Program-made: the position numbers and the translations under genes | Notes under the pieces: generated by a model | What the model was told of the DNA's origin: nothing | Seen by the model: the letters and a program-made list of their open reading frames with translations, nothing else | Database searches by the model: none | Shown: piece by piece, positions 9,144-30,527 of the stretch | Layout: each line of letters opens with the position of its first letter | How positions within the stretch are numbered: position 1 is the stretch's first letter | Assembly: GCA_027492205.1 (NCBI GenBank) | Contig: JAOZFN010000009.1 | Coordinates: forward strand, 97,316-161,315 | Direction of reading: 5' to 3' | Source of the DNA: Thermoproteota archaeon | Lineage (GTDB): Archaea; Korarchaeota; Korarchaeia; Korarchaeales; Korarchaeaceae | DNA length: 64,000 nucleotides

Positions 9144-10118
9144 TCAGTCCGGGACTATCCAGGTCCCGGTCTTCCCCTCCAGAGCGTCGAGGGCCTTCTC
9201 CAAGTGGGTGATTATAGCGGCCTTCCCGCCGGCCTCCTCGATGAACCTGATGCAGGCCTTGACCTTCGGGCCCATGCTACCGGGCAGGAAGTGTCCCTCC
9301 TCGAAATACTTCTTGGCCTCGGAGACGGTCATCCTGTCTATTTCCCTCTCGTCGGGCTTCCCGTAGTTCAGCTTGACCTTCTCCACATCGGTGAGGATCA
9401 CGAAGATGTCCACCCCCAGAACCTCGGCCAGCCTCTCGCCGGCGAGATCCTTGTCGATGACCGCCTCGACGCCCTTTATCTTCCCGTCCTCCTCGATGAC
9501 CGGTATCCCACCGCCTCCGCTTGCGATCACTATGATGCCGCTGTCGTAGAGCTTCTTGATCGCGTCAGCCTCTAGCGGCCTGATGGGATCCGGGGAGGGG
9601 ACGACCCTCCTGTAGGGCTTGTCGGCGTTGGGCTTCACCTTCTTGATGACCCACCCTCTCTCCTCCGCCAGCCTCTTTGCGGTCTCCTCGTCGTAGAACG
9701 GGCCCACGGGCTTCGATGGGTCCTGGAAGTCCGGGTCATCCTTCCGAACGAGAACCCTAGTGACGACCGTGGCCGCCAGCTTGTCGAGGCCCACCTTCCT
9801 GAACTCGTTCATGAGGGCCTGCTGGAGCATGTACCCGATCTGGCCCTGGGTCATGGCCCCGCACACATCCATGGGCTGAGGTGGAATTCCAAGCCTCTGC
9901 CCCTCCTCCTGCTGAATGAGGAGCGCGCCCACCTGAGGCCCGTTCCCGTGGGTTATGGCCAGGTGGTACCCCCTCTGCACTAGCTTGGCCAGCTGGGCGG
10001 CGGTCTTCTCCACGTTTCGGAGCTGCTCCTCATAGGTGCCCTTCTCCTGAGCCTGCTTTATGGCGTTCCCTCCCAGGGCGACAAGTATCTTCTTCCCCAA
10101 GTCCGTCAAGCGCTTCAC
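9144..10118 (-). CDS. arcC: Carbamate kinase
   Basis: [50 protein letters not shown]. Confidence 0.95.
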
Positions 10119-10194
10119 CTCCGAGAGCGACGAGGTCCGCCCTCCGGAGGGTTAAAAACATGTATCCAATCAGCCCCCCGAGGGTGGAGGGGGC

Positions 10195-11343
10195 CTGGAC
10201 GGTGGAGATGAGGTTGTCAAGTTCTGCTATAGGCTTGTCCAGACTCCAAGCCTCTCGGGGGAGGAGGGCGAGGTAGCTGGCCTGATCAGAGATGAGATGA
10301 ACTCACTGGGATTCGACAGGACGTGGGTGGATCGGGCTGGAAACGTCGGAGGTTTGATCAGGGGGTCTGGGTCGGGGCCCGTGGTGGTCCTGGAGGGGCA
10401 CATGGACACGGTCCCCCCAGGGAGGGCGGAGGAGTGGGGGGTCGATCCCCTCTCCGGGGAGGTCAGGGACGGCTGGCTGTACGGCAGGGGGTCCGTCGAC
10501 ATGAAGGGGGCCATAGCGGCCATGGTTCACTCCGCCCTCCTACTGGACTCGGCGGACGCGGACGTGTACATGGCCTTCGTGGTGCACGAGGAGGACCAGG
10601 AGGGCTTCGGAATCAGGGTGTTCCTTGAGGAGGCAGGAATAAAGCCTGATCTCGTGGTCTTGGGGGAGGCCACGAGGCTCAACGTGGCCGTGGGGCACAG
10701 GGGCAGGGTCGAGATCAGGCTCTCCGCCGGGGGAAGGACGGCCCACTCCAGCATGCCCGATCTGGGGGACAGCGCGCTCTACAAGTTGGTGGAGGCGCTG
10801 GTCAGGCTCAGGGGGATCTCGGGAGAGCTGCCCGAGCACGAGGTCCTGGGGAGGTCCACCGCCTCTCCGGTTGCGATACGCTGCTCGCCCGGGGTCATTC
10901 CCGTCATCCCAGACTCTTGCGAGGTCCTGGTGGACTACAGATTGGTGCCTGAGGAGACGCTCGAGTCGATCCTGTCTAGGATGAGGTCGCTGAAGCCGGG
11001 AATCGAGGCCTCGGTCGTAACCAAGACCATAAGGTGCTACACCGGCCTCGAGGAACGCGTGAGGGCGTACTTCCCGGCCTGGTACATGCCCAGCGAGTTC
11101 GCGAGCCTGGTGGTGGGGGAGCTGAGCGGCGAGCTGGTGACTTGGAGGTTCGGAACGGACGGTTCCTACACAGCCGGGGAGGCGGGAATCCTCACGATTG
11201 GGTACGGGCCGGGCGACGAGACCCTGGCCCACAGGCCGAACGAGAGGGTCAGGGTGGCCGACCTGAGGGCGGCCGCGCGGGGGTACGCCAGCATAGTCAG
11301 GCTGGCCGAGGATCACCTGCCTAGGGGCTCGGGCAGGTCATGA
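10195..11343 (+). CDS. M20 family metallo-hydrolase, YgeY-like
   Basis: GHMDTV, GRGSVDMKG, VHEE, LGE, GHRGR, AHSS, W.FGTDG, GYGPG...AH; the conserved N-terminus (LVQTPSLSGEEGEVA) lies upstream of the ORF-track ATG 10297, implying a CTG start at 10195 after GGAGG. Confidence 0.85.
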   Translation: MDGGDEVVKFCYRLVQTPSLSGEEGEVAGLIRDEMNSLGFDRTWVDRAGNVGGLIRGSGSGPVVVLEGHMDTVPPGRAEEWGVDPLSGEVRDGWLYGRGSVDMKGAIAAMVHSALLLDSADADVYMAFVVHEEDQEGFGIRVFLEEAGIKPDLVVLGEATRLNVAVGHRGRVEIRLSAGGRTAHSSMPDLGDSALYKLVEALVRLRGISGELPEHEVLGRSTASPVAIRCSPGVIPVIPDSCEVLVDYRLVPEETLESILSRMRSLKPGIEASVVTKTIRCYTGLEERVRAYFPAWYMPSEFASLVVGELSGELVTWRFGTDGSYTAGEAGILTIGYGPGDETLAHRPNERVRVADLRAAARGYASIVRLAEDHLPRGSGRS

Positions 11344-11767: not shown

Positions 11768-12033
11768 TCCTCCAGCAGCCTCCCCATCCTCTTGTGCGTG
11801 TGGAGCACGACGAGGCTGTTGGAGCCGTTGATGCCCTGCTTCTTCAGAATCCTCTTCACGAGGACGCTCCTGAAGTGCTCTATGGACTCCGCCTCGACTA
11901 TCAGGACAAGGTCCTGGTCTCCCGTGACCTCGAACAGGTCGACCACCTCGGGCATCTGCTTGAGTTCGTCGACCAAGGACTCCAGATACTTCGCCTCGAC
12001 ATAGAGGTTGATTATCACAAGCATGGAACTCAC
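11764..12033 (-). CDS. Stand-alone Lrp/AsnC ligand-binding (RAM) domain protein
   Basis: 89 aa, PEVVDLFEVTGDQDLVLIVEA motif, no HTH. Confidence 0.8.
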   Translation of the reverse strand: MSSMLVIINLYVEAKYLESLVDELKQMPEVVDLFEVTGDQDLVLIVEAESIEHFRSVLVKRILKKQGINGSNSLVVLHTHKRMGRLLEE

Positions 12034-13886
12034 CTCCTGAGGACCAACACCTTCCCGGGAAGCCTCGCCGACACCACCCTGGCCAGGCCCCTCTCTTTAG
12101 ACTTCATGGCCCGCCTCGACGTGAGCACCACGACGAGGTCGTACCTGTCGCTCGCGCCCTCCATGACAGCCACTTCCACCGGCTCTCCGTACATAACGGA
12201 GGTCGTCGCGAGGATTCCCTTGGATCTCAGCATCTTAGCCGTCTCCGCAAGTAGGGCGAGCGTCCTATCGGTCTCCCTGGAGAGCTCGTCGGGTGACATG
12301 CCCGCGGGGTTGACGACGCTGAGCAGGTGAACCCTGAACCTCCCTCTGAGGCCCTCGGCAACGGCGCGGGCCACCTTCTCCGGATCGTCGTAGGGCCTGA
12401 AGAGCACTAGGGCGTCCATGAGGTAGTTGGCGGGCCTGGACATCTCCCCACTTATCCTCCCGGTGATCGGAAGGCCCGCCGCCGTCCGGTAGGCCGCGAA
12501 GGCCACGAGGCCAGCCACGAACCACGCCGTTCCCAGGGATCGCCCGACCGGGTGGAGGGCAGCCACCAGGGCGAGCATCACGCCGGTGGCCAGGGCGCCC
12601 AGGAGCCCAACCAGTGGGATCTCCCTCCCACCGACCTTGATGGAGCCCGGCGCCCTCCACGGCCGGTAGGCGTCCCTGTCCAACTCCCTCAGCCGTATCA
12701 TGGAGACGTTCACCAAGACGTAGGAGACGAGGGCCCCGAACGCGTACACATCCGCGATCTTCTCAAGACTGCCGAGCAGCGTCAAGAGCCCCCCGAGGAG
12801 GCCGAAGATCACTATGGTCCTCACCGGCGTCCTGAAGCGAGGGTGTATCGCCTTGAACCAAGAGGGCATCAGCCGGAACCTGCCCATGGAGTAGACCACC
12901 CTCGAGACTCCGATTATCCCCGTGTTGGCGGAGACCAGGTTTATCACGAATCCGGTGGCAGCAACCAGCGCCGGGGCGACTCCGCCGATCACGGGGAGGG
13001 ACTCCGCCAAGACGGTGAGGGGCCTCTCCGCGTTCTCGGCCAGGGGCCGCCAGCCGACGGTCCCCACCCCCACCAGGGAGAGCCCCAGCGCGAAGACCAG
13101 AACGGCGGCCACCGATAGCTTGGTGGCAAGCGGAATCCACTTGTAGGGCCTCTTTATCTCCTCGGCCGCCTGGGCGATGGACTCCACGCCTATGAAGGAG
13201 CTCATGGCCAGCGTGGTGCCGTAGATGAAGTTCTGCTCCCTAACGCCGATGCCCGGTAGGTAGGCGACCTCCTCCCTCACCCCAGGGAAGCCCACCTGTG
13301 AGAGGTTCGCCCTGAGCGTTTCCGCCCTGACGCAGGCCAAGCCTATCAGAAGAAGGATGCCCTGAACTGCCAGGCCGAGGGAGACCATTATCTCGTTCAA
13401 CCTGGAGGACTCCCTGATCCCGACCAAGTTCAGCAGTATCAGGGCGGCTATCATGACTATGGAACACAGGGCGAACCCGTTCAGCTTGACGCCCAGTAGG
13501 CTGTGGGAGAATGAGGCTATTTTAGGGAAGAAATACGATAGGTAGCCAGCCGACGCCATGGAGAACAGGGCGATGTCCACGGTGTAGCTCAGGAGCAGGG
13601 CCCACCCCGCAACAAAACCGGCGAGGTCCCCCAGCCCCCTCGCCGCGTAGACCTGGGCTCCGCCGGCGTATGGGTAGGTTGAGGACAGCTCAGCGTACAC
13701 CAGCCCTGTGAGGACGTAGGCCACGGATGCGAGGCAGAAGGCAAGCGGGAGCCCTCCAGCCGCGTAGGCCGCCACCAGACCGAGCGCTATGAATATGTCG
13801 GCGCCGACATCGGCGTATCCCATGGCGAAGGAGCCGAACCACCCTACGTCCCTTTTCAGAGAGACCTCCCGCCCTCCCTCGGCCAG
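12030..13886 (-). CDS. APC family amino acid permease with C-terminal USP-like domain
   Basis: ~12 hydrophobic segments, YAELSS..P.AGG.Y, IGVESI...AEE, SRVVYSMGR..P...HPRFRTP; N-terminal LKRDVGW lies upstream of ATG 13823 so start is a CTG (13886 or 13859). Confidence 0.88.
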   Translation of the reverse strand: MAEGGREVSLKRDVGWFGSFAMGYADVGADIFIALGLVAAYAAGGLPLAFCLASVAYVLTGLVYAELSSTYPYAGGAQVYAARGLGDLAGFVAGWALLLSYTVDIALFSMASAGYLSYFFPKIASFSHSLLGVKLNGFALCSIVMIAALILLNLVGIRESSRLNEIMVSLGLAVQGILLLIGLACVRAETLRANLSQVGFPGVREEVAYLPGIGVREQNFIYGTTLAMSSFIGVESIAQAAEEIKRPYKWIPLATKLSVAAVLVFALGLSLVGVGTVGWRPLAENAERPLTVLAESLPVIGGVAPALVAATGFVINLVSANTGIIGVSRVVYSMGRFRLMPSWFKAIHPRFRTPVRTIVIFGLLGGLLTLLGSLEKIADVYAFGALVSYVLVNVSMIRLRELDRDAYRPWRAPGSIKVGGREIPLVGLLGALATGVMLALVAALHPVGRSLGTAWFVAGLVAFAAYRTAAGLPITGRISGEMSRPANYLMDALVLFRPYDDPEKVARAVAEGLRGRFRVHLLSVVNPAGMSPDELSRETDRTLALLAETAKMLRSKGILATTSVMYGEPVEVAVMEGASDRYDLVVVLTSRRAMKSKERGLARVVSARLPGKVLVLRR

Positions 13887-14060
13887 CTGAGATCCCGGTC
13901 AGCCCGCTGATGCTCAGATCATAAAAGGTGATCGCCCGTGAAGCGGAGAGACCGATCGGCGAACCCCCTCTGCTAAACCGGGGGTTCAGACGCTATCCTA
14001 CACTACCGAGATTACCGGTTAACCCAAACGGACCCGGAGCATTCCGCGGGTTAGATTGTA

Positions 14061-14085: not shown

Positions 14086-14099
14086 AACATTGATGAGGA

Positions 14100-16037
14100 T
14101 CACGGCGGAATCCTGATTCCCCTCCTCTCAAGCTCTTCTGCCTCCCCCGTCAGCCCCAGCTCATCCAACCTCGCTCTCCTCGGGATCCCCGTCTCAACGT
14201 CCCAATTTCTGTACTGGTAGTACTCGTCGAGCATCTGGTCGAGCTCCACCACCTGCCCCTTGGCGGGCCCTCTCGGCATCGGCTCCTTGGTGAACCTCTC
14301 CGGCAGCGAGTCGTCCTTCCTGGTCAGCCCCTCCCTCACGTTAAACAGCCTCTGGAGGTTCACGATCCTGGCGCCGATTAGCCTTAGGTCGGCCTCCGTG
14401 TACTTCTTCCCGGTCACCAGCGTCAGGGCCTCCGCCAGGTCCGGGTAGAAGAAGACCGGCGGGATTATGGTGCCGTACTTGCACACGCCCACGGCCTCGA
14501 CCACGGCCCCGAAGTCCTCCAGCTCCGCCACCATGATGCCCTTGTACTTGGGGTTCAGCCTGTCCGTCATCTCGGGGAGGTACTGCTCTCCGAACCTCTC
14601 GACTATGTCCTTCTCGAAGCCCACCTCGTCCAGCACCGGGAACGCGTAGAGGTGGTCAGCGCCCCTGTTGGAGGTAGCGTGAGCCAGCCCCATGCTCTTC
14701 TGGGCCCTGCCGTCCTGCGCAGCTATCTCCATCTTCTTCACGTGCATCGCGTACTTCTCGGTTCCCCTCCCGATCTTCTTGGCGGCCCGGTAGACGCCTT
14801 CGGCCAGTAGGTCCCCGAAGCCCTTCCTAAGGGCGATCATCTCGATCAGCTGGACTATCAGCTCAGGGTCTCCCCACTCGAGCTCCAGACCTCCGGTGTC
14901 CTCCTTGGTCAAGAGGCCGTTCTCCCAGCACTCCATGGCCCAAGCTATGACCCCTCCGGCGGATATGACGTCCATCCCGTAAAGGTTGCACAGGTGGTTG
15001 GCGTAGATCAGGGCCTCTAGGTCGCTGTTCCCCACGTTGGCCCCCAGCGCGTCCAGACCCTCGTACTCGGGCCCCTTACCTATCATGGCGTACTTGCCGG
15101 AGGGCACTCGGACGAACCGGCCGCACCTCTGATAGCAGGCGAAGTCTGCCTTTGGCTTGAGCAGGTACTCCCTCGTCACCCTCTCCCCGGAGATCTTCTC
15201 CCACTCGTCGAACACGCCCTCCCTGTGGTTGTACGCCGGCAGCCTGCCTATGGCCTGCATGAGCTCAACCAGGCTGTTGGTGCCGTACTTCACCCTGTCC
15301 GGCGTGAATGGGTGGGCGAGCATCCTCTTGCCGTATTCGATCATGGTCTCGTAGAACTCGTCGGGCCTGGCCACCTTGATGGGTCTGTACCCCCTGGCCG
15401 CGATGGCCTTGAGCCTCTTGGAGCCCATGACGGCGCCGATGCCGGCCCTGGCCGCGGCCCTGCCGTGGTCGTTGAAGACGCCGGCAAACCTCACCAGGTT
15501 CTCCCCAGCCTGCCCTATCAGCGCCGCCTTGACCTGCCTGTCTCCGATCTCCTCCTTGATCATCTCCTCCGCTTCGTAGGTCGTCCTCCCCCACAGGTGG
15601 CTGGCGTCCTTTATCTCGGCCTTCCCGTCCTCGATGTATATGTAGACCGGCTTGTCAGACCTGCCGGTGACCACGACCGCGTCGAATCCGGCGAACTTGA
15701 GCTCGGCGCCGAAGTGCCCGGCGGCGTGGGCCTCGCCGTAGACGTCGGTGAGCGGGGACTTGGCGGCGACTATGTGCCTGCTGGCCTGAGGGAATATCGT
15801 CCCGGTGAGAACCCCCGTGGCCAGTATGAAGACGTTGTCCGGGCTGAACGGGTCCACCTCCGGTCCGACCAGGTCGAAGAGCCACCTGGCCGCGAACCCC
15901 GTTCCCCCGAGGTAGTTCAGCGCCAGCTCCTCGTCCAGCGGCTTTGGCACGACCTTCTGTCTGCTCAGGTCGACCCAAAGGATTTGACCGGCCCAGCCGC
16001 CGTACTTCCCGGCAACTCCGATCGACCCCGAATCCAT
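14100..16037 (-). CDS. Aldehyde:ferredoxin oxidoreductase (AOR/WOR) family tungstoenzyme, paralogue 3
   Basis: KSPLT, ELKFAGFD, IGQAGENLV, GAVMGSKRLKAIA, GPEYE, GMDVIS, RGADHL, FNVREG...DD.LP.RF. Confidence 0.93.
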   Translation of the reverse strand: MDSGSIGVAGKYGGWAGQILWVDLSRQKVVPKPLDEELALNYLGGTGFAARWLFDLVGPEVDPFSPDNVFILATGVLTGTIFPQASRHIVAAKSPLTDVYGEAHAAGHFGAELKFAGFDAVVVTGRSDKPVYIYIEDGKAEIKDASHLWGRTTYEAEEMIKEEIGDRQVKAALIGQAGENLVRFAGVFNDHGRAAARAGIGAVMGSKRLKAIAARGYRPIKVARPDEFYETMIEYGKRMLAHPFTPDRVKYGTNSLVELMQAIGRLPAYNHREGVFDEWEKISGERVTREYLLKPKADFACYQRCGRFVRVPSGKYAMIGKGPEYEGLDALGANVGNSDLEALIYANHLCNLYGMDVISAGGVIAWAMECWENGLLTKEDTGGLELEWGDPELIVQLIEMIALRKGFGDLLAEGVYRAAKKIGRGTEKYAMHVKKMEIAAQDGRAQKSMGLAHATSNRGADHLYAFPVLDEVGFEKDIVERFGEQYLPEMTDRLNPKYKGIMVAELEDFGAVVEAVGVCKYGTIIPPVFFYPDLAEALTLVTGKKYTEADLRLIGARIVNLQRLFNVREGLTRKDDSLPERFTKEPMPRGPAKGQVVELDQMLDEYYQYRNWDVETGIPRRARLDELGLTGEAEELERRGIRIPP

Positions 16038-16039
16038 AA

Positions 16040-17398
16040 TCACCTCCACCTCCCCATCCTGACGAACTCCCCGTGGCCGGGGCGCCCGACGGGCTCGCCG
16101 TCCTGGGCCACGACCTCACCCCGTACGGTGACCAAGACGGGCCAGCCCCTAACGACGATCCCCTCGAAGGGCGTCCAGCCCACCTTGTAGTGGAGCCTGT
16201 CGGCCCTGATCTCGACCTCCAAGTTCTGGTCGTAGATGACGAGATCCGCATCGGACCCGGGGGCCAGCTCGCCCTTCTTGGGGTACATCCCGAACGCCCT
16301 CGCCGGGTTGGCGCAGAGGGCCGCGCAGAGCACGGTGGGCGGTATCCCCCACCTGTGGAGCCCCTCGCTCATGGAGATCGGCAGCAGCGTCTCTACCCCG
16401 GGGATGCCGCCCCAGGCCTCCCATATGTCGTCCCAGCCGACCTCCTTCTCTTCCCTGGTGCCGGGGGCGTGGTCCGTGGCGATCATGTCCACGCCGCCGG
16501 TGAGCAGGGCCTCCCAGAGCCCCCTGACGTCCTCCTTCGTCCTGAGGGGCGGGGTCATCTTGAGGTAGGGCCCCCACCTCCCCACATCGTCCTTCGTGAA
16601 TACCAGGTAGTGGACGCACGTCTCCGAAGTCACCCTGAGCCCCCTGGCCTTGGCGTGGGCCACCAGCTCGGCCCCCCTGGCCGTGTTTATGTGGGCAACG
16701 TGGTAGTGCCCGCCCACCCTGGCCACTGACTCGATTATCCGGGCCACGGCGACGGCCTCGGCCTCGGGCGGCCTCGAGTCGTGGTGGGCCAGAGGGTCCT
16801 TCCTTCCCTCTACGTCTCTGACCCTGTGGACGCCCCTCTCCACAACTTGGTCGTCCTCCGAGTGGACGACAATCCTGCCACCAAGCTCGGACGCCCTGAT
16901 CAGGAGTTCCTCTATGTAGTCGTAGCTGGCCAGGAAGGGCTTGGTGGTGAACGCCTTGAAGGAGAGGACGCCCATCTCCGCAAGCTCGGGCATCCTCCTC
17001 AGGTGCTCCTCGCTCGTCATCATGCCCGCGTGCAGGCTGAAGTCTACGAGGGACTCCCTCCCGCCCACCTCTATCTTCTGCCTGGCCAGCTCCGGCATGA
17101 CTGTGAGCACCAGGGGCATGTCCATGAGCAGGGTAACGCCACCGGCAGCGGCGGCCTCGCTCCCGCTCTTCCAGTCCTCCCTGTGCGTGTAGTCCGGATC
17201 GTAGATGTGCGCGTGCGCGTCCATGGCCCCAGGCATCAGGATCTTCCCGTTGGCGTCTATAACCTGGGAGGCCTCTGGCAGGTGGGGATCCTTGGCCAGG
17301 GTCACGATCCTCCCGTCCTGGACGGCGACGCCGGCGCCCTCTATCATGAACTGGGAGGTCAGGACCCTGGCGCCCCGGATCACGAGGTCAACCGTCAT
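16040..17398 (-). CDS. Cyclic amidohydrolase (dihydropyrimidinase/hydantoinase/allantoinase family)
   Basis: MPGAMDAHAH, AAAGGVT...DMP, carboxy-Lys SFKAF, VHSED, ETCVHYL, PPLR, ATDHAP, GSDAD. Confidence 0.92.
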   Translation of the reverse strand: MTVDLVIRGARVLTSQFMIEGAGVAVQDGRIVTLAKDPHLPEASQVIDANGKILMPGAMDAHAHIYDPDYTHREDWKSGSEAAAAGGVTLLMDMPLVLTVMPELARQKIEVGGRESLVDFSLHAGMMTSEEHLRRMPELAEMGVLSFKAFTTKPFLASYDYIEELLIRASELGGRIVVHSEDDQVVERGVHRVRDVEGRKDPLAHHDSRPPEAEAVAVARIIESVARVGGHYHVAHINTARGAELVAHAKARGLRVTSETCVHYLVFTKDDVGRWGPYLKMTPPLRTKEDVRGLWEALLTGGVDMIATDHAPGTREEKEVGWDDIWEAWGGIPGVETLLPISMSEGLHRWGIPPTVLCAALCANPARAFGMYPKKGELAPGSDADLVIYDQNLEVEIRADRLHYKVGWTPFEGIVVRGWPVLVTVRGEVVAQDGEPVGRPGHGEFVRMGRWR

Positions 17399-19365: not shown

Positions 19366-19869
19366 TCACACCCCTGCCCTCTTCGGGGCCATCAGGTTCT
19401 GGGCCACCTCCTGCATCCTGAGGGCGACCATCCTCCTCTTGGTGTCGTCGGCCTGGTCGGCCCTGACCCACTTGATGGCGCCCGTGGGGCAGATCCTGGC
19501 GCACTGCGGGTCTCCGCCGCACCAGTCGCACTTCAGTATGCTGTTGGTCTCGGCGTCCCACCCCACGCCGCCGAACGGGCAGGCGGTGATGCAGGACTTG
19601 CATCCAATGCACCTCTCGGCCTCGTATACCACGAGCCCGGACTCCTCGTCCTTCCACAGCGCGCTGGTCGGGCACGCCGCGACGCACGGCGCGTCGTCGC
19701 ACTGGAGGCACGTGACGGGAACGTCGAGTCCGCGGTCCTCGAACTTCACCACCGTGATCCTAGACCTGGAGGGCTGGATCACACGGTAGTGATGGAAGGA
19801 GCAGGCCCCCTCGCAGAGCCTGCACCCGGTGCACAGCTCGGGCGTTATCAGCAACATCATCTGGGCCAC
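19366..19869 (-). CDS. 4x[4Fe-4S] electron-transfer (WOR small) subunit
   Basis: CTGCRLCEGAC, CLQCDDAPCVAACP, CIGCKSCITACP, KCDWC...CP; GTG start after GGAGGTG. Confidence 0.92.
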   Translation of the reverse strand: MAQMMLLITPELCTGCRLCEGACSFHHYRVIQPSRSRITVVKFEDRGLDVPVTCLQCDDAPCVAACPTSALWKDEESGLVVYEAERCIGCKSCITACPFGGVGWDAETNSILKCDWCGGDPQCARICPTGAIKWVRADQADDTKRRMVALRMQEVAQNLMAPKRAGV

Positions 19870-19920
19870 AAAAACCACCTCCCAACCCATTTCGCCTACC
19901 TCGCGGGACAAGGAAAAAAT

Positions 19921-21108: not shown

Positions 21109-21113
21109 CGTGC

Positions 21114-23048: not shown

Positions 23049-23051
23049 GCA

Positions 23052-23546
23052 TCACCCCTGGGGGACTATCAGTGAGATCAGCCTGGCGGACCTCTGGGCC
23101 CCGTCCACCTTCTTCTGGTAGCCAACCTGGTCGGCCCTGACCCACTTGATGGCGCCCGTGGGGCACCTCCTGGCGCACTGCGGGTCTCCGCCGCAGAGGT
23201 CGCACTTCACCACCTGGAAGGTCACCGGGTCCACCTGAATGCCGCCGAACGGGCAGGCGTTGAGGCACTGCTTGCACTCTATGCACTTGGACTTGTCGAG
23301 GAAGACGGCGTTGCCGAACTGGTATAGGGCGCCGGTCGGGCAGGCCTCGACGCAGAGGGGCTTGCCGCAGTGCTGGCAGGTCATGGGGATGAAGACGCCC
23401 TCGAAGTCATTCCTCAGGACCTGTATGTAAGATCGCCTGGGGTTGAACTCGCCGTAGTGATGGAAGGAGCAGGCCTCTTCACAAATCCTGCACCCGGTGC
23501 ACTTGTCGGGGTCTATTACCAAGAGGTTCTGAACCCCCTCAACCAT
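23052..23546 (-). CDS. 4x[4Fe-4S] electron-transfer (WOR small) subunit
   Basis: CTGCRICEEAC, CQHCGKPLCVEACP, CIECKQCLNACP, KCDLC; ATG after GGTGAT SD. Confidence 0.92.
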   Translation of the reverse strand: MVEGVQNLLVIDPDKCTGCRICEEACSFHHYGEFNPRRSYIQVLRNDFEGVFIPMTCQHCGKPLCVEACPTGALYQFGNAVFLDKSKCIECKQCLNACPFGGIQVDPVTFQVVKCDLCGGDPQCARRCPTGAIKWVRADQVGYQKKVDGAQRSARLISLIVPQG

Positions 23547-23719
23547 GTGATCACCGCCAGCCCTGAATGGGCCGAACAAGGGGCTCCCACAGAGACCAAA
23601 TAAATCATGGGATGGGAATTCGAATTCAGAACGTTATCCTCTCTGGGTATATCGAGTCAGGGGCAATGGAAAGGGCGCCATCTGATAGAGCGGAGCTTGA
23701 GGAGAGGGCGGTTATCGCG

Positions 23720-23742: not shown

Positions 23743-23745
23743 GGT

Positions 23746-25050
23746 TCAGCCGCCCAGGGCCGGCCCGACTACGTTGTCGACCCACCACTGCATGGACCAG
23801 AGCTCGTCGTGGCCTAGCCTCTGGCCGGCCATGACCCTCAGCGTCCCCTGGTCGTCGTAGATGGGACCGGTGAAGGGATCGAAGACCTCGTCGTTCACGA
23901 ACACCCACCCGCTGCCTGTCCAGACCGCGCCCATCTGGATGAGCCTGGCCATCACGAGGGTGTAGACATCCGGGTTCTCGATTACGGTGCCGTTGGGCAG
24001 CTGGATGGTCTCCTGGACCCTGACGGACTTGAGCTCGTTGATGAACTTGGGGTTGATCGGCTGGTTGAAGGCGCAGCCCAGCTCGACGGAGCCCTCCTTC
24101 AGCTTCCACCAGTAGTCTACGTTCTGCAGGTTCTGGGTGTTGTAGGAACCGGAGTATATCTTGCTCAGGATGTCGTCGTAGATCACCTCCCAGTGCACCA
24201 GCTGACCGCTGACGCAGACGTCGGGACCGTATTCAAGCATCGGGCTGTAGTGGCCGAAGGCGAGGACCCTCTCGCCCCTCTCGAAGTGCTCCTGGGCGAC
24301 CTGGACGACGGTCGGCGAGTCCTCCGTGAATGCCAGCACGTCGACGCCCTCGGAGATCAGGGCCTCGGCGGCCTGCCTGGCCTTGGTCGGATCGTACCAG
24401 GCGCCTATCTCCCTGACGTAGACCTTGCAGTCGGGGCAGACCTCCTTGACGCCCAGCGCGAAGGCGTTGATGTGCCTCACCACCTCGGGGATCAGGTGCG
24501 CGGCGACGTAGCCGATCTTCTTGGTCTGTGTCAGGGCGCCGGCCATCAGGCCGTTCAGGTAGTAGACCTGGTAGAAGTCGGCGAAGTAGGTGCCCATGTT
24601 GGGAGCCCTCTTGTAGCCGGAGCAGTGCCAGAAGATCTTGTCGGGGTGCTTCTGGGCCTCCTCGAGGGTCGGATCCATGAAGTCGAAGCTTGTGGTGAAG
24701 ATCACGTCGTAGCCCTTGCCGATCAGCTGCTCTATCACTCCGGCGCACTCGGCCGGGGCGACCGACTCCACGTGGGTGGTCTCCAGCCAGTCGTACTTCT
24801 GGTCGACCATCTCCTTAGCGGCGTGGTGAGCGTAAGTCCAACCGATGTCCCCGATCGGTCCAACGTAGATCCATGCCGCCTTGATCTTCTTGGCTGGGGG
24901 TGCCTCGCACGGAGGGCAGGTTGCCGGGGCCGGGGTTTCGGTCGGACACGGGGGGCACTCCGCCGCGCCCTTCGGCGCCGCAAGGTACCCGATCGCCGCC
25001 CCGACTATGATGCCGACTATAACTAAGGCAGCCCACTGGGAGGAGGTCAT
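23746..25050 (-). CDS. BMP family (purine/nucleoside) ABC transporter substrate-binding protein
   Basis: N-terminal TM anchor, WIYVGPIGDIGWTYAH, TTSFDF, HCSG, PEVVRHINAFALG, WYDP; ATG 25050 after GGAGG. Confidence 0.92.
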   Translation of the reverse strand: MTSSQWAALVIVGIIVGAAIGYLAAPKGAAECPPCPTETPAPATCPPCEAPPAKKIKAAWIYVGPIGDIGWTYAHHAAKEMVDQKYDWLETTHVESVAPAECAGVIEQLIGKGYDVIFTTSFDFMDPTLEEAQKHPDKIFWHCSGYKRAPNMGTYFADFYQVYYLNGLMAGALTQTKKIGYVAAHLIPEVVRHINAFALGVKEVCPDCKVYVREIGAWYDPTKARQAAEALISEGVDVLAFTEDSPTVVQVAQEHFERGERVLAFGHYSPMLEYGPDVCVSGQLVHWEVIYDDILSKIYSGSYNTQNLQNVDYWWKLKEGSVELGCAFNQPINPKFINELKSVRVQETIQLPNGTVIENPDVYTLVMARLIQMGAVWTGSGWVFVNDEVFDPFTGPIYDDQGTLRVMAGQRLGHDELWSMQWWVDNVVGPALGG

Positions 25051-25118
25051 GTCTATCCCTCCCACGGAGAGCGTGGGTGAGTTGATTGCCGATTTGATGC
25101 CCATAAATTTTTCCCGGG

Positions 25119-25232
25119 AGTCGAAAAGCTAACCCCGCCGCCCGGGCGTTCGGCCGGGGGCGGCCAGCGACCCGTTATCGCGAGATGGATAACGCAGTCG
25201 AAAAGCTAACCCCGCCGCCCGGGCGTTCGGCC
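25119..25232. repeat. Two exact 37-bp direct repeats separated by 40 bp
   Basis: AGTCGAAAAGCTAACCCCGCCGCCCGGGCGTTCGGCC at 25119-25155 and 25196-25232; spacer contains CGTTATC-N8-GATAACG inverted repeat. Confidence 0.92.
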
Positions 25233-25420
25233 CGGTAAAACGGACGTCTTACCCGAGAAAAGCGGGCATCGCCCCCAAATTGTTAAAATATTGTATCCAT
25301 AATCGTTCGTTGTCAACATTTTCAAGAAGACTGCGGCAGGCGCTGATCGATCATAGGGCGAGTTCCCGACCCACCGGGGGCCCGCCGGCCCGGCCTCAAA
25401 TGAGGGGTGAGGGGGAGGGG

Positions 25421-26365
25421 CTACTTCTCTCCCCTCACGTAGGGCACTCCGAGTGCTGCCGGAGCCCCCATTCTCCTCCTCATGGTCTCCGTGGCGCCGG
25501 CGGTGAGAACTATCACCGTTAATAGGTACGGCACTCCGTTCAGGAGCCACTGGCTGTACCCGTAGGCCTGCAGGGTGTACCCCCCGGCCTCGACGACTCC
25601 AAACAGGTAGGCCCCGAATATTGCCCTCAGCGGGTTCCAGAGGGCGAATATCGTGAGCGCCAGCGCTATCCATCCCCTGCCAGCTGTCATGTTCTCTATC
25701 CAGGCCGGGCTGTAGGCCACCGACAGGTAGGCCCCGGCCATGCCGGCCAGGGCCCCTCCAAGGGCTGTGCAGGCGTACCTCACGAGGTAGACGTTAATTC
25801 CGAGGGCGTCGGCGGCGGCGGGGTTTTCGCCCGTTGACCTGATAACTATCCCCACCTTGGTCCTGTAGAGGACGAACCAGAGGACGACGGCGATAACTAT
25901 GCTGAGGTAGAATAGCGGCTCCTGGTCGAACAGGGCCTTACCCACCAACGGGAGCTTGACTAGGCCCTCCGAGAGGGGCTTTGGGAGGAACCTCGCCTTG
26001 ACGGGTAGCTGATAGCCGACGTACTTTCTCCCGATCACGCTGCTCAGCCCGAGCCCGAACATCGTGAGGGCCAGGCCGGAGACGACCTGATTGCCCCGGA
26101 GGTGGATGCTGATTACCCCGTGTATGAGGGACATTAGTAGGCCGACCGCCGTCGCCACGGCCACGCCCAGCCAGGGGTTGCCCGTGGTCAGTGCGGTGAT
26201 GAAGGCGGATACCGCCCCCATTATCATCATGCCCTCGACGCCCAGGTTGAGTATTCCCGACCTCTCGGCGTAGATCTCGCCGAGAGAGGCCAGGAGGAGG
26301 GGGGTCGCCGATCTGAAACCGACCCACAGGATGTTCTCAACCACCGACAGGTCCATCCGCATCAC
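25421..26365 (-). CDS. Nucleoside ABC transporter permease
   Basis: GE..ERSGILNLGVEGMM, GENP.AA...GI.V, GRGWIALAL. Confidence 0.93.
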   Translation of the reverse strand: MMRMDLSVVENILWVGFRSATPLLLASLGEIYAERSGILNLGVEGMMIMGAVSAFITALTTGNPWLGVAVATAVGLLMSLIHGVISIHLRGNQVVSGLALTMFGLGLSSVIGRKYVGYQLPVKARFLPKPLSEGLVKLPLVGKALFDQEPLFYLSIVIAVVLWFVLYRTKVGIVIRSTGENPAAADALGINVYLVRYACTALGGALAGMAGAYLSVAYSPAWIENMTAGRGWIALALTIFALWNPLRAIFGAYLFGVVEAGGYTLQAYGYSQWLLNGVPYLLTVIVLTAGATETMRRRMGAPAALGVPYVRGEK

Positions 26366-27438
26366 CTCCTGAGCTGGATCCTGTATCGTAGGAGGAAGTC
26401 ACCGGCGAGGACGAAGAAGAGGACGGCTCCGTTGAACATGTCCACGACGCCGATCGGGAGCTTGTAGTCGATCATGATGTACTGGCCACCCACCAGGAGC
26501 CCTCCGAAGAGGAAGTTGGCGATCAGCAGGCCGATCGGGTTGACGCCGCCGAGCCAGGCCGTGATTATGCCCGTGAAGCCGTACCCCGAGAGGAACTCGG
26601 GCGTGAACCGATGCTGGATGCCCGCGAACTCCCCGACGCCCGCCAGCCCGGCTAGGCCGCCGCTTATGATCATGGCCAGGGTAACGGTCCTCAGGTAGCT
26701 GATCCCGGCCGCCCTAGCGGCCTCGGGGTTGTCGCCCACAACCTTCATCTCGTAGCCAGCTGTCGTGTAGTTCAGAAACACGTACACCCCAACGGCGGCG
26801 AGTATGGAGAGGATTAGCGTGGGCCAGTGGATCCTGGTCTCCCCGATCACAGGCAGCCAGGCGTTCTTGGATATGATCTCTGTGTGCGCGAACCCCCCGT
26901 ACGTGAGCTGACCGACCCTCTCCCTGGCCTTCCAAGGCCCGTGAATGAGGTGCTGGAAGACCCAGTAGATGACGTAATAGAGCATCAGGGTTGATATGAC
27001 GTCGTTCACGTTCAGCTTCGCCTTCAGGACCGCGGGCGGGATTCCCCAGGCCGCGCCGGCCGCGAACCCGACCAAGAACATGGATGGTATGAGCGCGATG
27101 GACGACGCGTCCGGGAACGTCCTGGCCACCACGTAGGCCGCCATCGCCCCCACCAGGAGCTGACCCTCGGCCCCTATGTTCCAGAAGCCAGTCTTGAAAA
27201 CCAGCGCGAGTCCGGCGCTGACGAGCAGGAGGGGCATCATTCTCACTATGGTCTCGGTGAGGCCGACCTTTGTGCCAAACGCGTTGAAGAAGATGGACCT
27301 GTAGACGTCAAGCGGGTTCACCCCATACGCGTAGAATATGACGGCCACCGCTAGCAGGGCCAACACGACGGATCCTATCCTGACGGCGAGGGCGAACCTT
27401 CTGGGCACAACCACGCGCTTCCGAACTATCACCCTCAT
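26362..27438 (-). CDS. Nucleoside ABC transporter permease
   Basis: WNIGAEGQ, GDNPEAARAAGI, SGGLAGLAG, GYGFTGI. Confidence 0.93.
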   Translation of the reverse strand: MRVIVRKRVVVPRRFALAVRIGSVVLALLAVAVIFYAYGVNPLDVYRSIFFNAFGTKVGLTETIVRMMPLLLVSAGLALVFKTGFWNIGAEGQLLVGAMAAYVVARTFPDASSIALIPSMFLVGFAAGAAWGIPPAVLKAKLNVNDVISTLMLYYVIYWVFQHLIHGPWKARERVGQLTYGGFAHTEIISKNAWLPVIGETRIHWPTLILSILAAVGVYVFLNYTTAGYEMKVVGDNPEAARAAGISYLRTVTLAMIISGGLAGLAGVGEFAGIQHRFTPEFLSGYGFTGIITAWLGGVNPIGLLIANFLFGGLLVGGQYIMIDYKLPIGVVDMFNGAVLFFVLAGDFLLRYRIQLRR

Positions 27439-29003
27439 GAGGCCATCTCCTCCCTGGCCAGCCTCCTGGCTCCGGCCATCATCAGCCCTATCTCCTCAAT
27501 CGAGGCCTCTTCTGGCCTGACTATGCCGACGATTTCACCGTTGAACATCACCCCAACCCTGTCGCTGAGCTGGAGCACCTCCTCGAGGTCCTCGGAGATT
27601 AGGAGCACGGCGGCCCCTCTCTTCCTCTGTTCGAGCAGGATCCGGCGGATGTACTCGGTCGCACCGACGTCCAGCCCGTAGGTGGGGTGGGCGGCCACGA
27701 TGAGCCTGGGCTCTTTGTGGAGTTCCCTGGCGCATATCAGCCTCTGGATGTTCCCCCCGGACAGGAGCTTCGCCGGGGTCAGGGGGCTTGGGGTCACTAT
27801 GTCGAACTTGTTGATGAGCCTCTCAGCATCCTCGATCACCTTAGAGTGGTCCAGGAGCAGCCCCCTCCTGTAGGGCTCCTTGTAGTAGTCCTTGAGGATG
27901 AGGTTCTCGGCGACGCTCAGGTTGGGTACGATGCCGTGCCTCAGCCTCTCCTCCGGAATGTGGGCCACCCCCCTGGAGGCGATGAACCTGGGCGACTTGT
28001 TTGTGACATCTACCCCGTCTATGAGTACTCGGCCCGCGGTGGCCTTCCTGAGTCCTACTACGACCTCCGCAAGCTCTCTCTGACCGTTCCCCGCGACCCC
28101 GGCTATGCCGAAGATCTCGCCCTCGTGGACCCTGAAGCTTACCCCCCTGACCGCGGGGAGCCCCCTGTCGTTCAGGGCGTGTAGGTTCTCCACCTCCAGG
28201 ACGGGCTTACCCCTCGAGACGCGTTCCTTCTCCAACCTGAACAGGACTTCCCTGCCCACCATCATCCTCGCGAGCTCCTCCTTAGTCGTCTCGCTGGCCT
28301 TCAGGGTGCCTACGACCTTCCCCCTCCTCATGACAGTGACCCGGTCGGCGACCTCGAACACCTCGTCCAGCTTGTGCGTGATGAAGATTATGCCCTTGCC
28401 CTCGTCCCTCATCCTCTTGATGATCTTGAACAGCTCCCTCGTCTCCTGCGGGGTCAGCACCGACGTCGGCTCGTCGAGTATAAGTATGTCGGCGCCGTGG
28501 TAGAGGGCCTTGATTATCTCGACCCTCTGCTGCTCGCCCGCGGAGAGCTGCCAGATGTAGGCGTCCGGATCGACCTTGAGCCCGTACTTCTCGGCGAACT
28601 CCCTGAGCCTCTCCTTTATCTCCTTCAACGGGTTCAGCAGGCTCTCGGCGTACCCCAGGGCTATGTTCTCCGCCACCGTGTGCCGATCCACGAGCATGAA
28701 GTGCTGGTGGACCATCCCTATCCCGAGGCTCATCGCGTCCCTGGGGCTCCTGATCTCGACCCTCCTGCCCCTGACGTAGATCTCGCCGCCGTCCGGGTAG
28801 TATATCCCATAGAGTATGTTCATCAGGGTGGTCTTCCCGGCGCCGTTCTCGCCGAGGAGGGCGTGTACCTCTCCGGGCCTCAGCTCGAAGTTGACGTGGT
28901 CGTTGGCCAGCACTCCGGGGAATCTCTTCACGATACTGACCATCTTAACGAGGAGGTCGGTTTCTCGGGGCTCGCTCGCCACGGCGGTAGCCTCAGAGGC
29001 CAA
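27435..29003 (-). CDS. Nucleoside/sugar ABC transporter ATP-binding protein (tandem NBD)
   Basis: GENGAGKTT, VHQHF, LSAGEQQR, ILDEPT, LSGGNIQR, PTYGLDV. Confidence 0.95.
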   Translation of the reverse strand: MASEATAVASEPRETDLLVKMVSIVKRFPGVLANDHVNFELRPGEVHALLGENGAGKTTLMNILYGIYYPDGGEIYVRGRRVEIRSPRDAMSLGIGMVHQHFMLVDRHTVAENIALGYAESLLNPLKEIKERLREFAEKYGLKVDPDAYIWQLSAGEQQRVEIIKALYHGADILILDEPTSVLTPQETRELFKIIKRMRDEGKGIIFITHKLDEVFEVADRVTVMRRGKVVGTLKASETTKEELARMMVGREVLFRLEKERVSRGKPVLEVENLHALNDRGLPAVRGVSFRVHEGEIFGIAGVAGNGQRELAEVVVGLRKATAGRVLIDGVDVTNKSPRFIASRGVAHIPEERLRHGIVPNLSVAENLILKDYYKEPYRRGLLLDHSKVIEDAERLINKFDIVTPSPLTPAKLLSGGNIQRLICARELHKEPRLIVAAHPTYGLDVGATEYIRRILLEQRKRGAAVLLISEDLEEVLQLSDRVGVMFNGEIVGIVRPEEASIEEIGLMMAGARRLAREEMAS

Positions 29004-29177
29004 GTTTCCCCCCGACCGCCTTTTTCGGGAACCATATTAATCTAACACTGGGGGGCGACCCGGCCAGCCCTAGAACGAGGTTAATTCTCAAAACCAATTG
29101 CCCCACGAGTCGCTCCCCGTAGCCACCTTCGGACAGGGGCCAAACGTTCGGGTGCCTGTTATTAGAAAGGTCCTCCG

Positions 29178-30527
29178 ATGTCCCACCAGCCGGAGGGGTG
29201 CGCGGTGATACTGTCGGGAAAGTGGGTTGTGACCTTTCAGGGGGGAGTCGACCTCGTAGAGGACGGGGCCGTCCTCGTCGAGGGCAGCGTGATCAAAGAC
29301 GTGGGGCCCAAGGGGCGGATAGTCAAGGAGAACCCCGGTGAAGATGTGATCGAGTTCCCCAAATCGGTAATCATGCCAGGGCTGATATGTGCCCACTGCC
29401 ACGCATACGGCGCCTTCGCCAGGGGGATGCCGCTGAAGGTTGAACCCCCGACGAGGTTCGTGGAGATCCTGGAGAGGATATGGTGGCACCTTGACAAGAG
29501 GCTCACTCTGGACGACGTCTACTACAGCGGGCTGGTCACGGCGATAGAGGCCGTCAGGCACGGGACCACCACGGTGTTCGACCATCACGCCAGCCCCTTC
29601 GCCATCACCGGCAGCTTGGAGAGGCTCGCCGAGGCGTTCAGGAAGGTCGGCGTCAGGGCCAACATAGCCTACGAGGTCTCGGACAGGGACGGTCTCGACA
29701 GAGCTGAGGAGGGGATCAGGGAGAACGTCGAGTTCATCAAGAGGCACCAGGGAGAAGAGTTCATCACTGGGAGCTTCGGCCTACACGCCCAGCTCACCCT
29801 CTCGGACGAGACGCTCGAGAAGGTCGTCGAGGCGGCCAGGGGCCTTGACACTGGATTTCACATCCACGTGGCCGAGGGGATCGAGGATGTCTTCGACAGC
29901 CTCCAGAAGTCTGGGAGGAGGGTAGTCGAGAGGCTGTGGGCGGCGGGCATACTCGGCGAGAAGACCATAGCAGCACACTGCGTCCACGTGAACGACAGGG
30001 AGATCAGGATTCTGAGGGACACTGGGACGAACGTGGTCCACAACCCCGAGTCCAACATGAACAACGCCGTGGGCGTGGCCCCAATAGTCAGGATGATAGA
30101 GCTCGGCATCAGGCCCGCGCTGGGCACGGACGGCTTCACGATGGATGTGTTCAGGGAGTCAAAGGTCGCCTACATACTCCACAAGCTCCACATGGCGGAC
30201 CCCAGGGTCATGGGGGCCGACAAGGTGGTGGAGATGCTGTTCCACAACAACTCCGAGCTGGCGGCCAAGTACTTCCCCAAGCCCCTCGGCAAGATCGTCC
30301 CGGGAGCGTTCGCCGACCTTGTGGTGCTGAGCTACAGGCCGTACACGCCCATGCACGAGGGGAACTTCCCGTGGCACTTCATATTCGGCATGGACGCCTC
30401 CCACGTTACGGACGTGTTGGTGGACGGGAAGTTCGTGGTGAGGAACGGAGAGCTCCTCACGGTAGACGAGGAGCAGATCTTTGAGGAGGCGCAGGAGCTG
30501 GCCCAGGCGCTTTGGGACCGGCTCTGA
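29178..30527 (+). CDS. ssnA: SsnA-like aminohydrolase (amidohydrolase superfamily)
   Basis: MPGLICAHCHAY.A.ARG, ILERIWW.LD, GTTTVFDHHASP, YEVSDRDG, GLHA..TLSD, HIHVAEG, HNPESNMNNAVG, GTDG. Confidence 0.9.
   Translation: MSHQPEGCAVILSGKWVVTFQGGVDLVEDGAVLVEGSVIKDVGPKGRIVKENPGEDVIEFPKSVIMPGLICAHCHAYGAFARGMPLKVEPPTRFVEILERIWWHLDKRLTLDDVYYSGLVTAIEAVRHGTTTVFDHHASPFAITGSLERLAEAFRKVGVRANIAYEVSDRDGLDRAEEGIRENVEFIKRHQGEEFITGSFGLHAQLTLSDETLEKVVEAARGLDTGFHIHVAEGIEDVFDSLQKSGRRVVERLWAAGILGEKTIAAHCVHVNDREIRILRDTGTNVVHNPESNMNNAVGVAPIVRMIELGIRPALGTDGFTMDVFRESKVAYILHKLHMADPRVMGADKVVEMLFHNNSELAAKYFPKPLGKIVPGAFADLVVLSYRPYTPMHEGNFPWHFIFGMDASHVTDVLVDGKFVVRNGELLTVDEEQIFEEAQELAQALWDRL

Follow-up and report, generated by a model that had tools for sequence, protein, structure and literature searches.

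Which enzymes could carry out the redox steps of nucleobase breakdown in an archaeal gene cluster that holds hydrolases like those of anaerobic purine degradation and no gene for xanthine dehydrogenase (XDH)? The question is raised by a 64,000-nucleotide stretch of DNA (the window), positions 97316-161315 of contig C11 in genome G000 (1.94 Mb, 96% complete). In this window, genes for three large subunits of tungsten-type oxidoreductases (WORs) of the AOR family (WorL type; WOR-A, WOR-B, and WOR-C) and for two polyferredoxin small subunits (WorS-1 and WorS-2) share an operon with genes for a PreA-like Fe-S flavoprotein and a HyuA-like cyclic amidohydrolase, close to SsnA and a BMP-type transporter. 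Taken as a whole, the cluster quite probably serves the reductive catabolism of N-heterocycles in general. More tentatively, we read the region as an archaeal, ferredoxin- and tungsten-wired variant of such catabolism, most likely of the purine route through 2,8-dioxopurine (isoxanthine).

Gene content and operon structure

Open reading frames (ORFs) were called and scanned with Pfam and NCBIfam profiles, with curated whole-protein cut-offs deciding family membership; genes and coordinates are collected in Table 1. Every gene that the initial annotation had listed between 9144 and 30527 was recovered in its place by these scans. The host is archaeal, as it encodes ribosomal protein L15e, a family that matched only the four archaeal control genomes.

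On the minus strand, the operon runs from 23579 to 14100 in the order WorS-1, WOR-C, PreA-like, WorS-2, WOR-B, HyuA-like, WOR-A. Its junctions are gaps of 3 to 9 nt or overlaps of 4 to 10 nt, with the WOR-C stop overlapping the start of the PreA-like gene. The interleaving of three AOR-family genes and two Fe-S subunits with hydrolase and PreA-like genes, proposed at the outset, is thus borne out as a tight operon with overlapping start and stop codons. SsnA is transcribed divergently from the BMP-type ABC transporter genes (23746-29003).

According to the available portions of two preprints (bioRxiv 10.1101/2025.05.19.654654 and 10.1101/2025.04.24.650524), the reductive uric acid/2,8-dioxopurine pathway of E. 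coli comprises XdhD-YgfM, YgfK, SsnA, HyuA, YgeW-YqeA, YgeY, and YgeX, with UacX and UacY in the C. difficile variant. UacX, with PF01180 plus 2x[4Fe-4S] and no FAD domain, replaces YgfK there, and Li et al. (2025; bioRxiv 10.1101/2025.05.19.654654, same portions) propose reduced ferredoxin as the electron donor of the C. difficile enzyme and cite the ferredoxin dependence of clostridial PydA. The window cluster shares with this pathway SsnA, carbamate kinase, a carbamoyltransferase, and hydrolases of the cyclic amidohydrolase and M20 types, and its PreA-like reductase has the architecture of UacX. The likeness to the anaerobic uric acid/2,8-dioxopurine cluster that was first noted holds for the form of the pathway known from C. 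difficile, where a PF01180 reductase stands in for YgfK. In contrast to that pathway, the window contains no PF02738 match (the XDH-family molybdenum domain), and the cluster has three AOR-family genes and two polyferredoxins instead. Compared with E. coli, YgfK, YgeX, and a YgeW-family protein are missing, the carbamoyltransferase resembles N-acetylornithine carbamoyltransferase, the Cys loop of PreA is missing from the reductase, and uptake is represented by a BMP ABC transporter rather than NCS2-type permeases. Whereas the known pathway is bacterial, the host here is an archaeon.

The E. coli proteins SsnA, YgeY, YqeA, and YgeW each have their best G000 match inside the window. SsnA belongs to its family and is the sole G000 match above cut-off. 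The HyuA-like protein, 31% identical to E. coli HyuA, falls below the cut-offs for allantoinase (TIGR03178, 330 bits; cut-off 358) and D-hydantoinase (TIGR02033, 295 bits; cut-off 393), and passes the dihydroorotase-type domain model pyrC_multi (298 bits; cut-off 279). Identity to E. coli YgeY is 34%, over window positions 10210-11295. As read from the ATG at 10297, the YgeY-like ORF covers profile positions 45-393 of NF009555 (296 bits; cut-off 321), about 44 N-terminal profile positions being missing, and reaches 224 bits with TIGR03526 (cut-off 321.5). Homology continues in frame upstream to about 10198-10210, some 30 codons, in which ATG, GTG, and TTG are lacking ahead of 10297; a TTAAAAA box lies at 10152-10158, and the GTT at 10213 is GTG in congener G029. 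A frameshift in this gene was rejected, as the identical gap-free arrangement of frames is seen in G029; the start codon is still uncertain. In whole-genome profile searches, the best G000 matches to YgeX (TIGR01747) and YgfK (TIGR03315) scored 38.9 bits against a cut-off of 274 and 56.6 bits against a cut-off of 835. As YgeX is absent, the end of the pathway may differ.

Of the two carbamoyl-phosphate enzymes, the carbamoyltransferase is the one tied to the cluster. It had been called YgeW-like, and it scores 184 bits with the YgeW model TIGR03316 (cut-off 500), which reaches 183 bits in the whole-genome search, and passes the N-acetylornithine carbamoyltransferase model NF003384, so that membership in the YgeW family falls away. 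Its association with the cluster stands, as orthologues co-occur and co-localize: among the 43 species genomes of the phylum in the collection searched (G000 lies in genus g1), orthologues of at least 75% identity are found in 12, all of them among the 15 with a WOR of the clade described below, and in 0 of the other 28. The distance between SsnA and the orthologue is 1.4 kb in G061, 0.15 kb in G060 (genus g5), and 4 kb in G032, and in G033 the orthologue adjoins the transporter; in the window, two insertions peculiar to G000 (30964-39469 and 45281-54054) part SsnA and the carbamoyltransferase. By its profile scores and location, we regard the protein as a candidate functional analogue of YgeW rather than a family member.

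Carbamate kinase belongs to the TIGR00746 family, is 45% identical to E. coli YqeA, and is present as one copy in 41/43 phylum genomes, including 21/21 of genus g3, which lacks the cluster and has no SsnA, no XDH family, and no clade WOR. It adjoins the cluster only in G000 and G029. CarB is absent from G000 (best match 19 bits). Because of this spread and the absence of CarB, the position of the kinase is no evidence of a catabolic role; it is probably a housekeeping enzyme, a source or sink of carbamoyl phosphate. Thus, its presence was rightly noted, and its use as a cluster-specific sign of ATP yield was rejected.

The WOR clade and its redox partners

All three WORs contain the AFOR_N and AFOR_C domains (260 to 464 bits), which places them in the AOR/WOR superfamily. 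G000 encodes 11 AOR paralogues, of which WOR-A, WOR-B, WOR-C, and the products of C5:2709-4595 and C9:83-2020 share 48 to 53% identity. Relatives were taken from a species-genome scan (best 80 of 598 confirmed): 90 ORFs at these 80 loci, together with the 11 paralogues of G000, gave a quick tree of 101 rows, of which 51 were selected for a careful tree. The five paralogues fall in one 26-row clade with SH-aLRT support (SH-like approximate likelihood ratio test) of 98 in the quick tree and support of 100/99 in the careful tree. The clade is separate from the canonical AORs, which include a PfAOR proxy (L036; gap-free to PDB 1AOR, 1044 bits) and a canonical AOR of G000 itself (C4:161688-163607). 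The three window enzymes are thus members of a distinct, well-supported clade apart from the canonical AORs.

The best PDB matches of all three (432 to 475 bits) are PfAOR 1AOR, 9MQX, and A. aromaticum AorB 8C0Z. With AOR sensu stricto they share the two Pfam domains, Cys ligands of the [4Fe-4S] cluster, Thr243, Glu311, Glu313, and His448, numbered as in PfAOR through the gap-free alignment of L036 to 1AOR. They differ from it in forming a separate clade, in scoring 243 to 274 bits with the AOR equivalog model against a cut-off of 868, and in their nucleobase gene context. Among the 26 clade members, Thr243, Glu311, Glu313, and His448 are retained in 26/26 and Tyr312 in 22/26, with Phe in four members of subclade A. 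Tyr427 is Gln in 26/26, WOR-A, WOR-B, and WOR-C included, and Tyr452 is retained in none (0/26), being replaced by Phe, Leu, or Ser. Other clade states are Ser for Gly434, Asp for Cys447, and Glu for Gln482, and the WORs have Phe or Trp for Ala71. The cluster ligands Cys291, Cys295, and Cys494 are present in all three and Cys288 in WOR-B and WOR-C; in WOR-A (subclade A), this first ligand is Asp, as reported for ASOR in the accessible text of PMC12096430. A DNA pattern for the clade motif QDGR...RGADH matches the window exactly three times, at the three WOR genes (0 expected from 100 shuffles).

Thr243, Glu313, Tyr427, and His448 make up the conserved second shell of aldehyde-oxidizing WORs, and changes of second-shell Tyr have been tied to lost activity (WOR4) or new activity (ASOR), as far as the accessible parts of PMC13328260 and PMC12096430 describe them. 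The clade departs from this set, keeping Thr, Glu, and His and having Gln for Tyr427. Among AOR-family proteins outside the clade, the divergent one encoded at 57926-59749 has Trp at this position, as reported for WOR4, and genes for a methyltransferase and a double-hotdog thioesterase precede it. Furthermore, three non-clade WORs that adjoin PreA-like genes (L011, L016, and L025) have Gly, Val, and Gly in place of Tyr427; loss of this Tyr may track PreA-like adjacency beyond the clade.

WorS-1 and WorS-2 are encoded 3 nt upstream of WOR-C and WOR-B, respectively, in keeping with class II WORs such as PfASOR/WOR5 and CbGOR, which pair WorL with a four-cluster WorS (PMC13328260, accessible text); WOR-A lacks a WorS gene of its own there. 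Sixteen Cys are invariant in the alignment of WorS-1 orthologues, enough for four [4Fe-4S] clusters. The best NCBIfam matches of WorS-2 are the N-termini of PadI, AegA, and YgfT; with the polyferredoxin N-termini of the latter two, WorS matches at E values of about 1e-20 to 1e-23, far under the family cut-offs. In contrast to class II WORs, the WorSL genes here are coupled with one for a DHODH/PreA-like FMN/Fe-S protein; the main text of the 2026 WOR classification (PMC13328260), as accessible, holds no third component like PreA and 0 occurrences of each of purine, pyrimidin, dihydroorotate, and amidohydrolase. A further comparison is BamB of class II benzoyl-CoA reductase, an AOR-family protein whose partner is WorS-like and whose substrate is an aromatic ring. 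BamB is a weaker match to the WORs (226 to 254 bits) and, in the accessible text of PMC12096430, has a Cys metal ligand and no second-shell residues, whereas Thr243, Glu313, and His448 are kept here.

The PreA-like protein has the architecture of E. coli PreA and clostridial PydA, an FMN TIM barrel (PF01180) with C-terminal 2x[4Fe-4S], and no FAD or NAD domain. It is 29% identical to E. coli PreA and falls outside the PreA equivalog family (NF006183, 199 bits; cut-off 335). Unlike the E. coli PreT/PreA system, the window cluster has no PreT, and the NFSCPQ loop of PreA, which we take to carry the catalytic Cys, is 11 residues shorter and lacks the Cys. This loss extends to the homologues of contig C5, genus g5, Thorarchaeota, and Bathyarchaeia, the loop being retained only in L016. 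PreA-like proteins of genera g1 and g5 also carry an insertion of about 20 residues (alignment columns about 79-100) that is absent in E. coli PreA and the Thorarchaeota homologue. A complex prediction for WorS-1 with the PreA-like protein gave a score of 0.00, that is, no answer, neither for nor against binding.

Distribution of the cluster and of XDH-family genes

Within the phylum, the window cluster is kept in three congeners (L089, L091, and L094), in g5 without WOR-A (L084 and L088), and in g2 (L101), and is split in g6 (L103 and L104). WOR-B belongs to the cluster in g1, g2, g5, and g6, and the BMP binding protein lies beside WorS-1 in g1, g2, and g5. The APC permease adjoins WOR-A in G029 and lies about 3 kb away in G033, whose conserved set comprises the PreA-like and HyuA-like proteins, carbamoyltransferase, three WORs, and the transporter. 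G000 has a paralogous module on contig C5 (789-11314; L002), with genes for a PreA-like protein, a WOR, a WorS, an M20 deacylase, a TRZ/ATZ amidohydrolase, a DHP-like amidohydrolase, and a second WOR, preceded by an ADH-synthase/DeoC-family aldolase gene and followed by ECF-type transporter genes; it is also kept in G063 (L105). In genus g5 (L085 and L087), SsnA is followed by genes for a pyridoxal-phosphate-dependent decarboxylase of the Orn/DAP/Arg type, the carbamoyltransferase, and a DHDPS-family protein. The decarboxylase and DHDPS-family genes were rejected as part of the conserved set, having no close homologue in G000; they may represent another outlet for the C3 or diamino product.

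The module recurs outside the phylum, in Thorarchaeota and Bathyarchaeia. A nucleobase-type neighbor was scored there as a PreA-, DHP-, TRZ-, or SsnA-like ORF within 12 kb, found by BLAST with the window proteins (E<=1e-8, at least 50% coverage). Such neighbors accompany WOR genes of subclades A (4/4), A' (1/1), and C (6/9), none of subclade B (0/7), and 5/68 non-clade genes; by locus, the counts are 8/18 for the clade versus 4/62. These subclade counts are not a statistical test, because the rows are heavily related and mostly from Thorarchaeota. In the 4/4 Thorarchaeota loci, WOR-A orthologues come after a cyclic amidohydrolase. Linkage of the WORs to nucleobase genes in other genomes, on which the initial annotation had staked its proposal, is thus found outside the phylum for subclades A and C and fails there for WOR-B, whose orthologues lie in Asgard and Thermoplasmata genomes.

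A metagenome sample of at least 120 stretches (median 7.2 kb) matching the DNA pattern of the clade motif gave, among the matches listed, a nucleobase-type neighbor at 31/120 loci (BLAST) and an XDH-family gene at 2/120. Five metagenome contigs (L141, L149, L181, L199, and L218) have the order WorS-WOR-C-PreA-WorS-WOR-B at 50 to 62% identity; some contigs sharing the window gene order may come from the same phylum. One locus (L126) combines YgeX-like (57% identity to E. coli YgeX) and SsnA-like genes with WorS, WorL, and WorL, and another (L192) a WOR with carbamoyltransferase and carbamate kinase. Within two genes of 80 metagenomic clade members lie 171 ORFs, of which 147 were scanned and 24, shorter than 140 aa, left out. 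After Fer4, the leading families are Amidohydro_3 (18) and Amidohydro_1 (15), followed by DHO_dh, Pyr_redox_2, MoeA-type, radical SAM, and the cytidine-deaminase fold, with four each.

How, then, is XDH distributed? G000 has only two PF02738 matches, both on contig C4, scoring 507 and 560 bits against an XdhA cut-off of 780. They belong to two XdhA/B/C-like sets (55.7-62.7 kb, within locus L001 at 53.8-68.5 kb), all under the curated cut-offs, which flank an aspartate-carbamoyltransferase-like gene, with an allantoinase/dihydroorotase-like gene beside and MoeA and a YqeB-like gene nearby; this locus may be another nucleobase cluster. Across the phylum, the XDH family occurs in 9/43 genomes: 5/5 in g1, G000 included, and none in g5 (0/5; completeness 71-93%), g2 (0/1), or g3 (0/21). 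Genus g5, the sister genus of g1, has the orthologous cluster and SsnA, yet no XDH family. SsnA exceeds its cut-off in 11 genomes, 6 of them without the XDH family, and 19/21 carrier genomes of other phyla, of completeness not known, are without the XDH-family domain. The initial annotation had the WORs replacing XDH; the window is without XDH genes, as it stated, but it had itself named an XDH set elsewhere in the genome as a ground for refutation, and by that measure the C4 sets weaken "WOR in place of XDH" for G000.

Possible roles of the WORs and other features of the window

In the purine reading proposed above, the BMP-type ABC transporter would import nucleosides or bases, and SsnA and the HyuA-like amidohydrolase would open the two rings. 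The carbamoyltransferase would phosphorolyze one ureido group, with the housekeeping carbamate kinase turning the carbamoyl phosphate into ATP, and the YgeY-like M20 enzyme would remove the other. The redox steps would fall to a module of three WorL paralogues, two WorS polyferredoxins, and the remodeled PreA/UacX-like FMN/Fe-S reductase. Here the WORs would do what XDH and DOPDH do, adding or removing hydroxyl groups at ring C-H/C-OH positions (from hypoxanthine/xanthine to urate, and from urate to isoxanthine), and WorS would carry electrons, in one direction or the other, between them and the PreA-like reductase. These substrates are predicted from gene content, the direction of electron flow and any WorS-PreA contact are presumed, and, with YgeX absent, so is the fate of the C3 product.

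That the WORs act directly on the heterocycle ring is a tentative proposal from sequence and gene context. It is favored because the second shell is altered, because there are several paralogues with a conserved partner each (the PreA-like gene for WOR-C, the cyclic amidohydrolase for WOR-A), and because carriers without XDH exist. Its wider form, that the Gln427 WorL clade with WorS and a PreA-like protein replaces molybdenum/selenium XDH-type enzymes in many anaerobic archaea and some bacteria, is a possibility that we put forward with more reserve.

Several points weigh against this reading. We know of no AOR-family enzyme that acts on N-heterocycles, and the retained Thr243, Glu313, and His448 fit ordinary aldehyde chemistry. 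The XDH-family sets of all five own-genus genomes, two sets in each, could do the hydroxylations. Clade WORs adjoin XDH-family genes in L064 and L178, as do non-clade WORs in L067, and thus neither enzyme type excludes the other. As the presumed catalytic Cys loop is missing, the PreA-like protein's own reaction is uncertain, and YgeX, YgfK, and YgeW-family genes are absent from the 96% complete genome. Co-occurrence is likewise imperfect: G033 has the cluster and no SsnA at E<=1e-90, and in G058 SsnA is present, XDH is missing, and the WOR-C query finds nothing at E<=1e-150. Only the above 8/18 species-genome loci and, among the matches listed, 31/120 metagenome loci have a nucleobase-type neighbor; WOR-B orthologues have none in 7/7 Asgard and Thermoplasmata loci, and in one subclade B locus (L019) WorS-WorL lies beside glutamate dehydrogenase and a class IV aminotransferase.

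Could the WORs supply electrons instead? WorL and WorS would then oxidize aldehydes or another small donor and feed the PreA-like reductase through polyferredoxins, taking the role of PreT, the YgfK FAD domain, or formate plus AegA/YgfT in E. coli, and purine hydroxylations would be performed by the C4 XDH-family enzymes or not be needed. The PreA-like protein without an NAD/FAD partner, the adjacency of WOR and PreA-like genes in several lineages, the resemblance of WorS to the N-termini of AegA and YgfT ("formate-dependent uric acid utilization" proteins), the retained second-shell residues Thr243, Glu313, and His448, and both the XDH-family sets of G000 and the WORs beside XDH genes (L064, L178, and non-clade L067) are consistent with such a role. 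However, three WorL paralogues in one operon plus two in the C5 module exceed the need of an electron donor, Tyr427Gln and the lost Tyr452 in 26/26 argue against a standard aldehyde site, Pfam and NCBIfam scans show no aldehyde-generating gene in the operon, and reduced ferredoxin has been suggested as the C. difficile donor (Li et al., bioRxiv 10.1101/2025.05.19.654654, available portion). On balance, we consider electron supply a serious rival, though less likely than direct action on the ring.

A somewhat less likely rival is that the WORs oxidize a semialdehyde in a redox-balanced fermentation, possibly of pyrimidines and not purines. Here, the PreA-like protein would reduce the base, the HyuA-like protein open the ring, and carbamoyltransferase plus carbamate kinase produce ATP; transamination of the beta- or diamino acid so formed would provide a semialdehyde for the WORs, with electrons returning to the PreA-like protein. 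The core set without SsnA in G033, the position of WOR-A orthologues after a cyclic amidohydrolase (4/4), and the need for another C3 outlet that follows from the absence of YgeX would all suit this scheme, and FOR is thought to oxidize a semialdehyde (PMC12096430, accessible text). Yet the operon has no aminotransferase, a bona fide SsnA lies beside the cluster here and in g5, and the PreA-like protein lacks the E. coli PreA Cys loop. Moreover, FOR keeps all four second-shell residues (PMC12096430, same text), whereas the WOR clade does not.

Coincidental co-location, with the WORs serving peptide or amino acid fermentation like canonical AORs and merely sharing the operon, is very improbable: it would fit the glutamate dehydrogenase and aminotransferase beside the L019 WOR-B and the lack of a nucleobase-type neighbor in 89/120 metagenome loci (among the matches listed), but has against it the overlapping start/stop codons, the duplicated C5 module, conservation in four genera, Thorarchaeota, and Bathyarchaeia, amidohydrolases as the top non-Fe-S neighbor family, and the separate canonical AOR at C4:161688-163607.

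Should the direct-action reading be true, a WOR clade dedicated to nucleobase catabolism would be a new reaction type or complex class in tungsten biochemistry and would include the first N-heterocycle hydroxylase of the WOR family. It would explain how purines could be fermented by anaerobic archaea that have no xanthine dehydrogenase, and a pathway reported from bacteria in 2025 would then reach into the archaea. In the literature portions available, known WOR activities all concern aldehydes, except benzoyl-CoA reductase and the sulfonates of PfASOR, and full-text literature searches found no paper linking AOR-family enzymes with purine/2,8-dioxopurine degradation.

Table 1. Cluster genes and related features, in window coordinates
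Feature	Position	Strand	Evidence or remark
Carbamate kinase (ArcC/YqeA type)	9144-10118	-	TIGR00746 434 bits, cut-off 358
YgeY-like M20 hydrolase	10297-11343	+	NF009555 296 bits, cut-off 321
APC-family permease	12030-13823	-	PF13520 146 bits
WOR-A, AOR-family large subunit, subclade A	14100-16049	-	AFOR_N + AFOR_C
HyuA-like cyclic amidohydrolase (dihydroorotase/allantoinase/hydantoinase group)	16040-17398	-	NCBIfam scores
WOR-B, AOR-family large subunit, subclade B	17395-19362	-	AFOR_N + AFOR_C
WorS-2, polyferredoxin small subunit	19366-19911	-	Fer4 families
PreA/UacX-like FMN TIM-barrel protein, C-terminal 2x[4Fe-4S]	19921-21123	-	PF01180 + Fer4
WOR-C, AOR-family large subunit, subclade C	21114-23048	-	AFOR_N + AFOR_C
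WorS-1 polyferredoxin	23052-23579	-	16 invariant Cys in orthologues
BMP/PnrA-family substrate-binding protein	23746-25104	-	PF02608 138 bits
BPD_transp_2 permeases, two	25421-26365 and 26362-27438	-	Pfam
Double ABC ATPase	27435-29003	-	Pfam
SsnA	29178-30527	+	NF005540 555 bits, cut-off 444; TIGR03314 531 bits, cut-off 455.5
Cluster-associated carbamoyltransferase	54017-55183	+	NF003384 315 bits, cut-off 288
Fourth, divergent AOR-family gene	57926-59749	+	
Third WorS-type polyferredoxin gene	63031-63585		end of contig C11

Rfam (gathering thresholds) and ARAGORN found nothing on the window. The first of the two insertions, on the minus strand, encodes an HdrB-like CCG protein, an MvhD/FlpD-ferredoxin fusion, an HdrA-like flavoprotein, a CooC-like ATPase, CooS (Ni-CO dehydrogenase family, 630 bits), a CooF-like polyferredoxin, and a helix-turn-helix regulator. 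It is absent at this place in congener G032, where an ARMT1-like gene directly follows SsnA instead. The second, on the plus strand between an M42 peptidase gene and the carbamoyltransferase, has a GC content of 54-60% versus about 63% elsewhere, encodes a 1106-aa SNF2/NOV_C helicase, a methyltransferase-like protein, and a DUF499 protein, and looks like an inserted defense or mobile island.

The end of contig C11 carries genes for a pyridine-nucleotide-disulfide oxidoreductase (minus strand) and a WorS-type polyferredoxin (61264-63585 together), and contig C9 begins with a clade WOR (C9:83-2020). C11 probably continues into C9, because the carbamoyltransferase and WOR lie about 7 to 8.5 kb apart in G029, G031, and L169.

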